A stretch of DNA of 63,989 nt, the filler included, from Basidiobolus ranarum (taxonomy: Eukaryota), in assembly GCA_040143965.1 (NCBI GenBank). It is 4 parts of 4 records of this genome, joined end to end, with 100 filler letters (N's around TTAATTAATTAA, not from the genome) between each part and the next. Parts side by side here need not be neighbours in the genome. Positions count along the whole stretch, not along the records: positions 17,053 to 34,000 come from JASJQH010000323.1; 3 more parts are not named here. One strand, written 5' to 3'. Positions 15,288 through 51,143 of the stretch are shown piece after piece. Position numbers and translations under genes: made by a program. The notes beneath the pieces were generated by a model. That model searched no databases. It was not told the DNA's origin and worked only from the letters and a program-made list of their open reading frames with translations. Each line of letters starts with the position of its first letter. The stretch's first letter is position 1.

Positions 15288-15989
15288 CTCTTAGTTGTAC
15301 ATCGAAAGTGGCCAAAGATCGCTCTGCGGAAGGCTGGTGAATAAACAAAGCAATCAACAGATCTATTTAATACCTCCTGTGTAATCCCTAGCACTGGAAA
15401 TGGAGGTGTATGAAGAAATACCCCCCAGATCTATACGATAGTTTTGACTGCTTATGTCGTTACATAGCTCATAAAATCCCCTATTGATGTGTCTCATTTA
15501 ATGGAAAGATTCCGCAGATAAAGGTTATCATTACTAATCGATTGAAGCATCAGTGTTGTTAAACTAAATACTGCGATCTTTATCAAGAAAGGGATCGAAA
15601 TGATTTAAAATAATCAATAACAAATTAAGAGGTACTAACAGTCGGTGGGTAGAGTGTGTAAGAATAAACATCTATAGGCCCAAGTCAGTTCGAAAAGAGC
15701 AGTAGGTACAGTTACTTTCAGTATGCTCGTGAATTTCACAGGATGCAGTAGACGGCAGTAGTTAGGACTAACCACTGTAATCCCGACGCATCTAAAATTT
15801 CCCGAAAACTATATATCAATCGTTTGCTAACCTGGAGTCAAACCAAACAAGTAAATCAGCCATTAGCCTTCCAACAAATAACTAGAAGGCCTCTGAAACT
15901 CAACCAGCAAAAAACACGTTCAGAAATACAAGATACTCTACTACTACTATCTCTAGCACCACCCTCTGATCTCTCGTCGCTATTCAAGT

Positions 15990-16565
15990 ATGCTTTTCAA
16001 TCGTATCTGCCTCTACACCATCCTCTCTGCTGTCCTCTATCGTGTGGAAGCCAGCCCATCCATCACTTCTCCCCTGGGAAGCAACTGGCAAGCAGGAACC
16101 ACACAGACAATCACCTGGATAGATAATGGGGACAAGAAAGAGATGCCTGAGTATTTTGACTTGTATCTCATGGCCGGTAAGATGACTGCACTCCAACAAG
16201 TAGATATTATCGCCACCAACGTCACTTCAAAGCTAGGACAATATAAATGGGACATCCCCAAGGACACTCCATCCGGTAAGGATTACGCCATTCGTATTGG
16301 AGCACCACCTAGTATTTCATACAGCCCATACTTTGAGATATCAGGTGGCAATGGAACCAGATCGGAAAGTTCCACAGGAAATGGTGGCTCATCTAGCAAC
16401 ACAGAAACAAAACCCTCAAATAATACTTCCAAAACTGATGAGCAAGCGCCTAATTCCAGCATAATTTCAAGTGCTCATGCCAAGCCATCAGATGGGTTTG
16501 CCAGCAAATATAACTTGAATCACATGTGGATTTTATATGGATTAGCTATATCTATGTATGCTTAA
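15990..16565 (+). CDS. Secreted Ser/Thr-rich, probably GPI-anchored protein (Kre9/Knh1-like), paralog of 1367-2053
   Basis: Signal peptide, ITSPLGSNWQAGTTQTITW, YKWDIP..GKDYAIRIG..YSPYFEI, S/T/N-rich stalk, hydrophobic tail. Confidence 0.85.
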   Translation: MLFNRICLYTILSAVLYRVEASPSITSPLGSNWQAGTTQTITWIDNGDKKEMPEYFDLYLMAGKMTALQQVDIIATNVTSKLGQYKWDIPKDTPSGKDYAIRIGAPPSISYSPYFEISGGNGTRSESSTGNGGSSSNTETKPSNNTSKTDEQAPNSSIISSAHAKPSDGFASKYNLNHMWILYGLAISMYA

Positions 16566-16952: not shown

Positions 16953-17052
16953 NNNNNNNNNNNNNNNNNNNNNNNNNNNNNNNNNNNNNNNNNNNNTTAA
17001 TTAATTAANNNNNNNNNNNNNNNNNNNNNNNNNNNNNNNNNNNNNNNNNNNN
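16953..17052. other. Artificial contig-joining spacer
   Basis: N44 + TTAATTAATTAA (stops in all six frames) + N44. Confidence 0.98.
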
Positions 17053-27833: not shown

Positions 27834-29050
27834 CTAAGCCCAAATCTAATGGAGTTGAAGTATTAGATAACATCGAAAGAATGACTGAACAGAACCAATT
27901 ACCTTTAGTAAGCTATCCCAACTACCCGTACACAAAGCCATACCATCAGCAGACACACCCAAGCAACTGACTCTATTTTCGTGTGCGGCCAAGACTCCGA
28001 CTCTATCACCTCTCATGGTGTCCCAAACATTGCAATTAAAATCGTCATAACCAGCAAACAGGAGTCTACCAGAAACGGAGAATGCCACCGAAGTAATTCC
28101 ACACAAGATATTATCGTGAGCGTACTGATTCAGCTCGCGATCTGCACGTAAATCAAATAGCCTACAAGTAGTATCATCTGAGCCAGTACCAAAAGCATCT
28201 CCGTTGGGAAAGAATTGAACTGCATTGATATCCGATTCGTGACCAGTAAATGTTTGAACGCATTTTCCTGTACGAATATCCCATACTTTGGCAGTAGCAT
28301 CACAGGCACCCGACACAAAAATATTCTTTTCTGGAGCAAGAGATAAGCTAATAACATAGTGAGCAAGAAAACACTTCAATATATCTTTTGACATCTACCA
28401 GAAATTTACCTCATTACATCTCCGGTGTGATCTGCGAAATCCATTAGCTTTACTCCAGCGTCAATATCCCAAAGCATGCATGTCATATCTCCTGAACTGG
28501 TCAAAATCTGACGGTCACTTAGAAATCTGCAACAGGATAAGTAACCTGTATGAGCACTCAGCTCTCTTGCGACTTTAACTGAGCCTTCTTTAGTTTTCAG
28601 ATTATAAATCGAACAGACATTATCTAATCCACCACACGCGACAAAATTTCCTGATGGCGCATATGCACATGTCATTACCCACGAAGAGCGTAATGGAATG
28701 GCGTGAATTTTGTTTGTTGTGTAAGCGTCCCAAACAATCAACTTTCCGTCTTGTGAAGCTGAGACTAGATGGCGTTCATCGTTAGCCCATTGCATTGCGT
28801 AAATCTTGGCGAGGTGGCCTTTTAGCGTCCGACGAACTTTCATGACTATTCTGGGCAAAGGCTCTAATTCTGCAGCAATGTTTTTTACTAGATTTGGATA
28901 AAAAGGTTACAAAAAGGTTCTTTGAAACAGTTAAAAAATTGGATTCTTACAAGTTGCATCGGCCAAACTATCTTTTTTCTGCCTAATCTTCTCTTTAAGC
29001 TGTTCTGCATCCCTTCTAGCGATGGCTATTCTCTCTGATATATCACTCAT
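27834..29050 (-). CDS. GPB1: Heterotrimeric G-protein beta subunit
   Basis: [49 protein letters not shown]; 3 introns. Confidence 0.97.
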
Positions 29051-29952: not shown

Positions 29953-30971
29953 TTAGATATCAGTGAAGACTTGGGGTTCCTTGAACTCTTTAGCGATCTT
30001 GGCACCGGAGTCTTCGGAGGCATCACCGTGAAGTTCCATCAACTTACCAACATCAAACTTAGGAGCCTTGAGGATCTTAACCTTGTGAAGGTAGACGTTT
30101 TGAAGGGGGTAGATACCTTGGCAAGCCTTCTCGATTTCACGGCCAATAACTTCAGGAATGAACTTTTGAACCAAAGACTTGAGGTCGCAGGTGGAGGCCT
30201 CACGGGTCATGATCTCGAACATCTTCTTACGAATTTGACGGATTTGAGCTGATTGAGCGTAGGTGGTCTTCTTGAGTTGATTGGGTCTTCTACGGGTGAA
30301 ACCAATAGAGAAAAGACGAAGAAGGTAACCATCGGTAGTCTTAACATCGACATGGGCTTCGATAAGAGATTGCCATTTCTTGACAAGGGATCTCAACTTG
30401 TCGGAAGTGAAAGTCATACCGTGGAAGTTGGTGAGGCAGTTTTTGCCTTGAACTTCATCAACTCTGAGACGAATCTTACGGAAGGATTGCTCCTCATCCT
30501 TGTTCAAATCAGCAAGGGAGACTTCAAGAACACGGCCCTTCAAGTAATCAGTAGCGTTCTTCAAACCTTGGGTACGGTTGACAAGGGTCTTGCCAACGTT
30601 ACGAACTTCGAAAAGGGATGGTGCCTTGATATCGTACCAGTCCTTGCGGGTGAAGGGATCAACGCTAAAAACCAAACCATATGTTAGATACTGTATATTA
30701 TATTTCAATAGGCCACCATAGTCGTGTAATTGCGTTCAAAATCCATTCTCTAGTACTATTGCTACAGACTTAAACGACGACCATGGATGGATGGATAGAC
30801 TAGTAAAGATTGAATGAAACTTACATCTTCTTCTTCAAACCCTTCTTTCCTTTAGAGAGACGCCTATTTACATTAAAAAATGGAATCAGTTAATATCAAT
30901 TGGACTCTCTGATACGACACTTCTAAGAGATGTGATGAATTTGTCAATTACTTGTTCTTTCCAACGGCCAT
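29953..30971 (-). CDS. RPS1: 40S ribosomal protein eS1 (S3Ae)
   Basis: [42 protein letters not shown]; 2 introns; strong codon bias. Confidence 0.98.
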
Positions 30972-31361: not shown

Positions 31362-31937
31362 TTAAAGCTTAGAAGATGAGGCAGCACGGTAGCCAGGAAT
31401 GTATGTCTTATAATCGCCACCGATCTCGACGATATTGCAATCATGTTGAGATACCTTATTTTCCCATACAATACAACCAAAGTCGGTGAGTTCCTCAAGT
31501 GCGACCATGGGATGATGCCAGATGCCAGCACCATAATTTACACCTTGGTTGCGAGCAAAAGTAAAGGCTTTCATGGTTGAGAGATCAGGTTTGTCATCCT
31601 TACCATTCAAAGCAACGATAACTAGGTAGCCTTTGGAGGGGCGTTCTGTGGCCATAGGGATGAAACATTGAGAGGAATAAGGGTGACGCTCAAGAAGCTT
31701 AATAGGGAATGGGATTTGTGTAGCTGGTTTGCATCTGAAAATGCACAGATTGGGGTTGGCTTTGGGAACATTGGATTGCTCAGCTTCACGATTGTTGGTG
31801 CAAGTGGCAACGTGGTTATAACGTTGAGCAGTTCCTTGATTAGCGCTGATGAAAGGGCCATCATGAGCGCAAACAACGTCACCATAGGCAGTAAAGTTTT
31901 CGCGGGTAACTGGGATAGCGGTAAGATACTGTGTCAT
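31362..31937 (-). CDS. DAL3: Ureidoglycolate lyase/hydrolase (AllA/Dal3 family)
   Basis: FTAYGDV, ANQGTA, LLERHPYSSQCFIP, QGVNYGAGIWHHPM; intronless; likely start MTQYL at 31937. Confidence 0.92.
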   Translation of the reverse strand: MTQYLTAIPVTRENFTAYGDVVCAHDGPFISANQGTAQRYNHVATCTNNREAEQSNVPKANPNLCIFRCKPATQIPFPIKLLERHPYSSQCFIPMATERPSKGYLVIVALNGKDDKPDLSTMKAFTFARNQGVNYGAGIWHHPMVALEELTDFGCIVWENKVSQHDCNIVEIGGDYKTYIPGYRAASSSKL

Positions 31938-33078
31938 GGTTGATAGTAAGAGAAAGGCTAGTGTGGAGGCACGCTGCTTGTTAAGTCGAATCAATTGGTT
32001 TTATATTTTGAAAAAGGTCACACCATCAAAGATCAAGATATAGATTCAGTGAGTGCCACCTATACCTTTGACCTCATCACACTTGGCTCATGAGCTTATG
32101 AAAACTAAACATGCGGGTGGAGGAGTAGTAAGTTTTGGGGTAGATGGAATCAAATCGATAATCTTAGGTTATATGGCTAAAGATTTTCGGGGCCTTATTT
32201 ATTTGCCCACAACGTTACGTTACTTCGAGTTATGCTTGGCATATTAGTAGCAGTTATTTTAAAGGTTCATAACAATTCGCCTGTATAAACAAGAAGATAC
32301 TTACTGGAGTTGAATAAACATCTTTCAGTTTACAAGAATGACGCGTTTAGCACACTTATCCTTATTCTAGGAAAACACAATCGTCTACTAACAGTTGTTT
32401 CAAGAATATTACTTTTTTGTAACGTTTTGATTTCTAGAATAGTTGACTTAGTATTTAGAAATTCTAAAGATCATTCGATTCCAATTTAATGAGGTAAACT
32501 TTGAAATGGTTTTGTTGTCTGGCGATTAAGTTGTGGTTTCACATTCACATGCAATATAACGATCATAGCATTCTCTTCTATTGTAAGTCAAATGCTTATG
32601 TTGGTGATAGCATAAACTTCATTTGGAGGTCGATACCGACTATCACCAAGGCAAAGGATATGATACTTCACAAGTAATTAATATACAACCACTACTAATT
32701 GTTTATCACTGAACAAATATTTAAATGGCTTATGTTATATCCTCAAGGTGGTAATAGCTGATGATTTTCACTTGTAATTTTGAATTCTCGTTACCTACAA
32801 AATAATTGAAACACGGTTAATATTCTAGTTTTAGTAGTAAAATTATTCGATCGTGACTGGAATTATATAATAGTTTTGTTGAAGCAAGGGTGAGATAACT
32901 GACTCTGGGTCAGTGATGAATGGCTTGATAAATTAGTAGATGAAATGTAGGATATGTCGTCCACTGAACTAATCATTTAACGAATTGTGAATGTCGCACT
33001 CACCAATAAATTCACACTATAAAACGGTAACTTTGTGTTACAGTCATCAACCATGTAAAGCTCTACACTTCACCTACG

Positions 33079-33291
33079 TCAATACTTTATACTTCCCTTG
33101 AGTTCAGACCTTGTATGATCACGTAGAGTGATGCCTCGCTTCTTAGTGTGGCCACAAAACCATCCACCAAAAAGGTCATGTAAATCCCGCTTGTTATTGG
33201 CAGTGGGTGACTGTTTGTGTGCTACCTGTTCCTCAGTCTTAGTAGGAGTTGTTGGCTTTAGTAAAAGTGAAATAGCTGCTAATATATGGTC
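33079..33291 (-). pseudogene. Detached copy of the repeat-peptide unit (pseudogene fragment or unrecognised exon)
   Basis: Frame reads ..SPTANNKR-DLHDLFGGWFCGHT-KKRGITLRD..*; no ATG, preceded by TGA TAG TAA. Confidence 0.65.
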
Positions 33292-33572: not shown

Positions 33573-34000
33573 TCAACAGGACCAGCCTCCACAAAAACGA
33601 TCAAGGCCAGGATGATTAACATCTTTTACTACTGCTGAGTCCGCTCTGTTATAAAGAGTTAGGCCATTCAGGTATTCTCCACTTCTCTGTATTGCAGAGA
33701 TGACGTTGTCACGTAGAGTGATACTCCTCTTCTTTGTGTGTCCGCAAAACCACCCACCACACAGGTCATGTAAATCTCTTTTGCCATTGGGTGTATAGAG
33801 TAGCTCTAGCGGCTCCTTCTCTTCATCTTTGATATGGATCTTGTTTTCAGAGTTGGTAACTGGTAAGCCTAGTCCACTCTCCTGAGGTATTTCCATACGC
33901 TTTGTATGGCCACAGAACCATCCTCCACATAGGTCATGTAAGTCTCGTTTATCTACTGTTGATGCCGTGTAGCCTTGTCCCATAGGTAGACTTTGAGCAG
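33573..34000 (-). CDS. Kex2-processed repeat peptide precursor (KEP-like), 5' end lost at the contig edge
   Basis: KR-DLHDLCGGWFCGHT-KR and KR-DLHDLCGGWFCGHT-KKR plus degenerate GLDRFCGGWSC*; frame stays open upstream of the ATG (AQSLP-MGQG) into the gap. Confidence 0.85.
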
Positions 34001-34100
34001 NNNNNNNNNNNNNNNNNNNNNNNNNNNNNNNNNNNNNNNNNNNNTTAATTAATTAANNNNNNNNNNNNNNNNNNNNNNNNNNNNNNNNNNNNNNNNNNNN
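34001..34100. other. Artificial contig-joining spacer
   Basis: N44 + TTAATTAATTAA + N44. Confidence 0.98.
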
Positions 34101-51043: not shown

Positions 51044-51143
51044 NNNNNNNNNNNNNNNNNNNNNNNNNNNNNNNNNNNNNNNNNNNNTTAATTAATTAAN
51101 NNNNNNNNNNNNNNNNNNNNNNNNNNNNNNNNNNNNNNNNNNN
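51044..51143. other. Artificial contig-joining spacer
   Basis: N44 + TTAATTAATTAA + N44. Confidence 0.98.

Follow-up and report, generated by a model that had tools for sequence, protein, structure and literature searches.

A repeat precursor gene on the minus strand at 33573-34000, cut by a contig end in Basidiobolus ranarum, which inhabits the gut of frogs and reptiles, raised the question of which peptide it releases and on what this peptide acts. The window, i.e., the whole stretch of DNA analyzed (63,989 nucleotides, filler included), was composed of four unrelated contigs separated by N linkers, each having a short palindrome in its middle (16953-17052, 34001-34100, and 51044-51143), and for this reason adjacency across the linkers is meaningless. 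Position 34000 was the genuine end of the contig carrying the gene (G000:C323) and was followed by the artificial linker at 34001-34100; the DNA past 34100 belongs to another contig and is not the upstream region of the gene.

The Precursor Encodes Two Identical Cores and a Degenerate Third One

The frame ran on the minus strand from 33998 to 33576, with the stop codon at 33573-33575, and 141 codons were visible before the contig end. Core 1 (33903-33944) and core 2 (33735-33776), both on the minus strand, were translated as the same peptide, DLHDLCGGWFCGHT, with the flanks KR/KR and KR/KKR, respectively. The Lys-Arg site ahead of core 1 (33945-33950) was invariant in the family alignment, and core 1 was followed by a further Lys-Arg site and an acidic spacer (33783-33902), which evolved fast when 18 paralogues were compared. 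Core 2 lay between a Lys-Arg site at 33777-33782 and a Lys-Lys-Arg site at 33726-33734. The codons of the two cores differed at 8 of 14 positions (1, 5, 7, 8, 10, 11, 12, and 13) through 8 nucleotide changes, all of them synonymous.

Retranslation and codon comparison hence confirmed the two identical KR-bracketed cores with 8 silent codon differences that a preliminary description of this DNA had reported. The frame and both cores of that description stood; it had missed a degenerate third core, a broken gene copy, and the minority status of the core peptide in the family (see below). The degenerate core was located at the C-terminus of the precursor (33576-33605, minus strand), with no dibasic site ahead of it, and aligned with the last core of a three-core sister precursor. 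The broken copy was a remnant of a family gene at 32866-33257 (minus strand), which retained only the 3' part, had no start codon, and was 81% identical over 392 nt to a paralogue on contig C1080; its core, at 33145-33186 (minus strand), was without the first Cys.

The 5' End and the Signal Peptide

The last 111 bases of C323 were found to be exactly the first 111 bases of contig C9816, and the same held for contig C8442. In C9816 the frame was completed by the start and the 16 missing signal-peptide codons (Met and 15 more, mostly hydrophobic), with no additional repeat. C9816 is probably a collapsed repeat and is common to two contigs; therefore, this assignment of the 5' end is true of both genes or of one. 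A third gene of the same subtype, on C1080, was complete within one contig and had the same kind of signal.

The C-region of the signal peptide (Ala-Gln-Ser) was placed by hand at 33990-33998 (minus strand), with the predicted cleavage before Leu-Pro. Small residues at -3/-1 before Leu-Pro were present in all 18 complete paralogues, also judged by hand, and the hydrophobic 10-mer at their N-termini had a mean of 1.8-3.3. The overlap with C9816 and these N-termini agreed with the earlier guess of a signal peptide beyond the contig edge; the repeats that had been expected there as well were not among the 16 codons.

A Tandem Family Under Selection on the Core

A genome search gave 42 matches, and 64 core-like matches (identity at 8 or more of 14 positions) were counted on the 12 contigs scanned, two of which were double counts from contig overlaps. 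These numbers, together with orthologues in a second species, indicate that the paired cores are not due to chance. Dibasic sites were present on both sides of 53 of the 64 matches. Among these 53 cores, 39 were DLHDLCGRWFCGHT (Arg8), 5 were the window core DLHDLCGGWFCGHT (Gly8), and 9 were single variants; the window core is thus a minority variant, and most family copies carry Arg8. A gene on C2 contained one core (L023:2198-2239) with Phe5 and Gly8, like the peptide of Basidiobolus meristosporus, beside an Arg8 core.

The family comprised 25 copies with a start codon, a signal, and a first core; 18 complete two-core ORFs were counted, and several copies were decayed. In the 18 complete genes the cores had a pN of 0.034 and a saturated pS of 0.77, as against a pN of 0.29-0.35 and a dN/dS of 0.34-0.44 for the signal, pro-region, spacer, and tail. 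The spacer alone showed an amino-acid identity of 0.42, a pN of 0.33, and a dN/dS of 0.41 across these paralogues. Judging by these rates, purifying selection acts strongly on the core, and the uniformity of the peptide reflects selection and not recent copying, because pN was low in the cores while pS was saturated. The purifying selection proposed earlier from two cores was thus borne out by the contrast between core (pN 0.034) and spacer (0.33) in 18 genes.

The contig ends suggested one array of approximately 20 kb in the order C8442-C9816-C1271-C1080-C9816-C323, with a centre in C1080 from which the genes diverge; the end overlaps were exact, except one with a single mismatch. This array would be bounded by a 2.8-kb inverted repeat that was collapsed in the assembly. 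C323 and C8442 were also considered as alleles, an option that was rejected, since they had only about 495 nt in common and their neighbours differed. Around four decayed family copies were clustered on C1228 (L028), next to a retrotransposon-like fragment.

Relatives Within the Genus Basidiobolus

Homologues were searched for at near lengths (22 matches among 49 candidates) and with a profile against 1.84 billion representatives (7 matches), and all matches were from Basidiobolus; none of the 177 longer candidate proteins was a match. All homologues found were named B. ranarum or B. meristosporus by their sources. The sequences point to a family of putative Kex2-processed repeat precursors that is tandemly amplified and restricted to Basidiobolus. 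The B. meristosporus core, DLHDFCGGWFCGHV, was identical to the window core at 12 of 14 positions, in line with the earlier expectation of an early-diverging fungal host and a core conserved in relatives. As this core resembles that of the window, Gly8 is probably ancestral and Arg8 derived.

Table S2 of Umemura 2020 (PMC7329392) groups two B. meristosporus proteins, ORX98272.1 and ORX98273.1, as KEP type 468; in the rows and passages available from this source, the type was given neither a function nor a pheromone label, and no DUF3328 neighbour was marked for it. ORX98273.1 (P0027) contained two copies of the orthologous core DLHDFCGGWFCGHV, each preceded by a KR site, and clustered with a protein matched by the family profile. 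ORX98272.1 shared the spurious zf-RING_13 label of the family; this Pfam label was rejected as a chance match, covering short stretches and lying above the cut-off in just one of six proteins. The family is not wholly undescribed, given that its B. meristosporus member is type 468; these rows and passages made no mention of the expansion to approximately 25 copies or of the variant with Arg8, nor of the pattern of selection, the promoter element, or the receptor link. The preliminary description had recognized the core from no described family, a claim that fails for the catalogue entry and holds for function, none being found in print. The literature searched, which covered few subscription papers, contained nothing on the core strings or the orthologue identifiers and nothing on Basidiobolus together with a G protein-coupled receptor and a peptide. 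Judged by title, publications on Basidiobolus and pheromones did not include this family, and those on TTCNNNGAA and fungi dealt with animal topics only. The family is therefore catalogued yet functionally uncharacterized in the literature searched.

Furthermore, a sister family with FWNMRYYCGG(W/F)xCxH cores was detected at two loci, on C7427 and C4, and was homologous to the precursor family (pairwise BLASTP E value of 2e-12). It shared with the window family the C-GG-W/F-x-C-x-H ring and the same promoter element twice per promoter, but differed in its 16-mer core with a basic aromatic N-terminus, in its three cores, and in the two gene copies found. Both sister genes (L030:6794-7420 on C7427 and L034:1501-2043 on C4) adjoined a gene that we take, from its motifs, to be a cytochrome b5-fused desaturase-like gene. 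In the C4 copy only the last core was intact, so that the segment may have been duplicated and one of the copies may now be in decay.

Processing and Peptide Class

Four kexin-type loci were present in the genome (L047-L050, on C6895, C2655, and C6903), two of them on one contig. Release from a polyprotein by Kex2/Kex1-type processing is established for candidalysin/Ece1 and the dikaritin precursors, and the layout of the Basidiobolus precursor is alike in this respect; candidalysin itself is a longer amphipathic helix without Cys. The precursor combined an ER signal peptide, assigned by hand from the C9816 overlap and the complete paralogues, with repeated cores parted by KR/KKR sites. Its two intact cores and one degenerate core remained below the three repeats given as the minimum in the available text on the pipeline of Le Marquer 2019 (PMC6339444). 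This minimum is a search cut-off rather than a biological limit. The signal peptide, the dibasic-flanked repeated cores, and the orthologue in the KEP catalogue together sustained the KEP architecture that had been proposed. KEP functions are described as mostly not known in the available part of PMC9769878.

The alpha-type pheromone precursors of ascomycetes, the partners of Ste2, among them those of the two-Cys pheromones in filamentous species, are similar in their signal peptide, short KR-flanked repeats, and two-Cys Trp-containing core, as far as the available text of PMC6339444 describes them. They differ in matching MF_alpha and in their Ste13 dipeptides: none of six family proteins matched the MF_alpha or MF_alpha_N Pfam models, and no X-Ala or X-Pro dipeptide followed KR in the 53 cores. 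No homologue outside Basidiobolus was matched either, so that neither MF_alpha nor homology assigned the family to this class. No Ste2 or Ste3 was found in the genome, in weak searches: the Ste2 search gave no match and its control matched nowhere, and the Ste3 search gave none over the cut-off with a control that was likewise empty. Ste2 is reported from Ascomycota only in the accessible part of PMC12842992. When Atlas clusters were ranked by features, an MF_alpha cluster came second at 0.83, which is a lead only, and an Atlas structure search with the precursor remained below a TM of 0.4.

A Palindromic Element in Peptide and Receptor Promoters

The 25 family promoters contained a TATA-like box 55-105 nt upstream, and the most conserved block besides it was the palindrome TTC-N3-GAA, which we take to match the STAT consensus. 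Loose sites occurred in 24 of the 25 promoters (51 sites), compared with a mean of 3.8 and a maximum of 11 after shuffling; as the family promoters are homologous, this is a footprint and not 24 events. A strict form, TTC-Y-N-R-GAA, was fixed before the receptors were looked at. At least two strict sites were present in 17 of the family promoters, one in 5, and none in 3, and both sister-family promoters had two, at about -128 and at -380 to -440. In the background of 700-nt tiles not selected for the motif, 36 of 472 had one strict site and none had two; none of 39 ordinary upstream regions had two. One single TTC-N3-GAA site lay in the window at 32365-32373, downstream of the gene remnant, and single sites were also seen near a cytochrome b5 reductase-like gene beside one family array.

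The 25 family promoters showed no enrichment of heat-shock spacing, the Ste12 PRE, or HMG boxes, and the Basidiobolus element differs from the pheromone-type Ste12 PRE and HMG box. A STAT_bind search of the genome gave no match, with an uninformative control, and the accessible part of PMC10406608 held nothing relevant on STAT. The sequence ATTCTRGGAAT was matched 147 times in the genome, 20 of them in family contigs, versus 62 times for the reversed control, an excess that was set aside because this control differs in dinucleotide make-up. The 100 of the 147 matches listed included 86 non-family loci, and a second site within 500 nt was present at 13 of these 86. A paired-motif scan returned 36 sites versus 24 in the control. 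No wider regulon was found among the 86 single-motif loci from the matches listed or among 28 paired-motif loci.

Two further contigs were recorded in this context. On C27 (L188:400-1041, 1501-1575), a short repeat with three strict sites was located some 490 nt upstream of the gene for a small, Ser/Thr-rich secreted protein similar to that at window 15957-16562; this gene may belong to the regulon, or the sites may be an artefact of the repeat. C2485 contained a tandem pair of secreted precursors of a different family, each with a terminal CaaX motif (L220, L221); an a-factor-like partner was not supported, as both of these loci were without a TTC-N3-GAA site.

Three Orphan Receptors Carry the Element

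At C378, one of the 13 loci with a second site, three sites were located directly upstream of a 375-residue membrane protein. This locus was chosen by eye from the 86 motif-selected loci, and two more, C1428 and C7116, were found through protein similarity and not through the motif; only the latter two are therefore independent tests. They were close paralogues of each other and the nearest relatives of C378 in the family. The protein search revealed at least 26 contigs or loci of this orphan GPCR family, 25 of which were examined, and other 7TM genes were present in the genome as well. Strict sites were confined to C378, C1428 (three), and C7116 (two). The remaining 22 loci had none; in 16 of them the ORF was long and lay in a single exon, with 440 nt or more of upstream sequence, 6 had uncertain starts or short flanks, and 4 had one loose site. 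When six promoters of peptide and receptor genes were compared, no stretch was alignable at E<0.01. The palindromic TTC-N3-GAA element common to both peptide families and to one GPCR clade is a new observation.

C378 is predicted to have a seven-helix GPCR fold (model with a pLDDT of 79 and a pTM of 0.77). The model matched GPCR folds with a Z of about 21 (19-21.5) and an rmsd of 2.7-4.2 over 213-260 residues, and the best 50 matches of both fold searches were all GPCRs or GPCR-like 7TM domains. Ste2 and Ste3 chains did not appear among the best 50 of either search, which excludes nothing. The nearest Atlas clusters of C378 were Dicty_CAR/Git3-like, and one of 19 receptor family members matched the Dicty_CAR Pfam model; in this the candidates differ from the Ste2/Ste3 pheromone receptors.

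A tree was built from two proteins of B. meristosporus and 19 of the 25 loci, six fragments being left out. In it, these two orthologues grouped with the three receptors that carry the element in a clade (support 97/93) with two old branches, and the orthologues of both receptor types were encoded on a single B. meristosporus contig at a distance of seven locus numbers. A label-clustering test on the tree (3 changes; 500 of 500 shuffles as low) was uninformative because the two B. meristosporus rows were unlabelled. A complex prediction for residues 1-305 of C378 with a 30-residue piece ending in core 2 scored 0.00 twice, in runs without alignments in which the controls did not fold either; for this one pair, the result speaks neither for nor against binding.

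The element-bearing receptors and their nearest relatives were without the TM3 and second-loop cysteines of most other members, and their second loop was shorter. Within the clade, Arg-His in TM2 was invariant, and acidic residues were present in TM3 as well as ahead of TM7. In C378, a 134-nt inverted repeat, 95% identical (L175:1-134, 718-851), duplicated the 5' end of the receptor at the contig start; the duplicated end had a changed start codon, and the promoter with the three sites may also serve a divergent second copy.

A Putative Self-Signalling Circuit and Its Alternatives

The preliminary description had offered a signal, a toxin, or an effector. The element shared with a GPCR clade and the anionic, non-amphipathic peptide would favour the signal, and we give an even chance to a Kex2-released, disulfide-ringed self-signal that is co-regulated with its own receptor, one other than Ste2 or Ste3. 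By analogy with established KEP processing, the precursor would enter the ER, where Cys6 and Cys11 would form a six-residue ring, kexin would cut after KR, a Kex1-like carboxypeptidase would trim the basic residues, and an anionic 14-mer with Gly8, or mostly Arg8, would be secreted. Co-regulation suggests that the peptide may act on the cells of the fungus itself via the cAMP-receptor/Git3-like GPCR of C378, C1428, or C7116. A dimeric factor binding TTC-N3-GAA might activate the peptide and receptor genes jointly, in the manner of pheromone feedback; yeast pheromone pathways induce ligand and receptor alike. Speculatively, the ring and the C-terminal His common to both peptide families could contact the receptor, with the N-terminus giving specificity. 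The output could be a developmental or density decision, e.g., whether to form zygospores homothallically or to change between yeast-like and hyphal growth. This is the best guess because the Basidiobolus group is described as homothallic in the accessible part of PMC3734969 and because autocrine pheromone density signalling, with control of germination, is described for Fusarium oxysporum in that of PMC13308352. Doubtful, although possible, is the broader reading of a self-amplifying peptide-pheromone circuit that would be independent of the Ste2/Ste3 of Dikarya and would join two ring-peptide families, two cAMP-receptor-like GPCR types, and a STAT-like palindrome. The absence of a further pathway gene among the 28 paired-motif loci stands against the circuit.

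The shared element is evidence of co-regulation at most and not of ligand-receptor pairing. The peptide could thus be a real self-signal or developmental product whose true receptor is another protein, the element marking one shared condition. The link between peptide and clade rests on the genome, co-regulation needs no binding, and the orphan GPCR loci (at least 26) and other 7TM genes offer ample candidates; nevertheless, this reading seems unlikely when strict sites are confined to three loci of one clade among 25 examined, and two related peptide families are paralleled by two receptor types, which is suggestive only. We are similarly sceptical of an outward product made in bulk in the gut, be it antimicrobial, anti-competitor, or a ligand of a host receptor, with the GPCRs sensing an inducing cue. 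About 25 gene copies are more than pheromone loci are known to have and also suit a bulk product, and the gene dosage is high, with approximately 50 near-identical cores. A six-residue Cys ring with aromatics recalls urotensin II and octreotide, but the likeness to vertebrate hormones is one of ring size alone. With only 14 residues and a net charge of -2 or -1, the peptide differs from lytic peptides of the cationic or amphipathic kind, and the paralogues are uniform and not diversified as arms-race effectors would presumably be. The genus lives in the vertebrate gut and is discussed for antibiosis and host modulation in the available part of a preprint (10.1101/2025.03.31.646025).

The remaining alternatives concern the chemistry of the core. 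Chelation of a metal through His3, Cys6, Cys11, and His13 would account for the two His and two Cys, each conserved in 52-53 of the 53 dibasic-flanked cores, and could be read into the weak zf-RING_13 matches; it is nevertheless very improbable, since cysteines in the secretory pathway are normally oxidized, the sister family retains only C-x4-C-x-H, and no transporter or reductase gene had multiple elements. A dikaritin-type RiPP precursor with enzymatically cross-linked cores would have the same precursor layout (PMC7329392, available passages). That reading is scarcely credible, as dikaritins need DUF3328 enzymes and usually a Tyr according to the same passages, and neither was seen in the Basidiobolus family: none of the 53 intact cores contained a Tyr for ether cyclization, a UstYa/DUF3328 search of the genome gave no match (with an uninformative control), and no such ORF was recognized by eye beside the arrays. 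The DUF3328 survey itself, in the part available, reported no case from fungi other than Ascomycota and Basidiomycota, nor any next to type 468 (PMC7329392).

The self-signal with its own co-regulated receptor derives its interest from amplification under strict selection and from a footprint in the promoters by which three orphan GPCRs stand out. The precursors in KEP catalogues number in the thousands and have no receptors assigned, whereas this genome proposes three candidates each for peptide and receptor, i.e., 3 x 3 combinations. If true, the circuit would show self-signalling in an early-diverging homothallic fungus, from a group in which no peptide circuit is known; a cAMP-receptor/Git3-like GPCR of fungi would gain a first peptide ligand, and the circuit would point to a new transcription factor. 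It would then be the first zygomycete-grade peptide ligand-receptor pair in the literature searched, with possible control over the homothallic formation of zygospores or over the sensing of density in the gut, and shared promoter elements could be a general way of pairing KEPs with receptors. If false, a strikingly amplified yet ordinary KEP family would be left. Fungal GPCRs are mostly orphans (PMC13308352), and reports of known receptors for peptide pheromones come almost exclusively from Dikarya (PMC12842992), according to the accessible parts of these sources.

Genomic Neighbourhood of the Window Gene

The nearest downstream neighbours of the precursor gene were a gene at 31365-32000 that is presumably ureidoglycolate lyase-like and one at 29956-30735 that we take to be ribosomal protein S1/S3a-like, both on the minus strand; given such neighbours, the gene does not belong to a biosynthetic cluster. 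Additionally, a gene at 27849-28906 (minus strand), which we assume from its similarity to be G-protein beta-subunit-like, was located on the same contig about 5 kb from the peptide gene, probably by coincidence.
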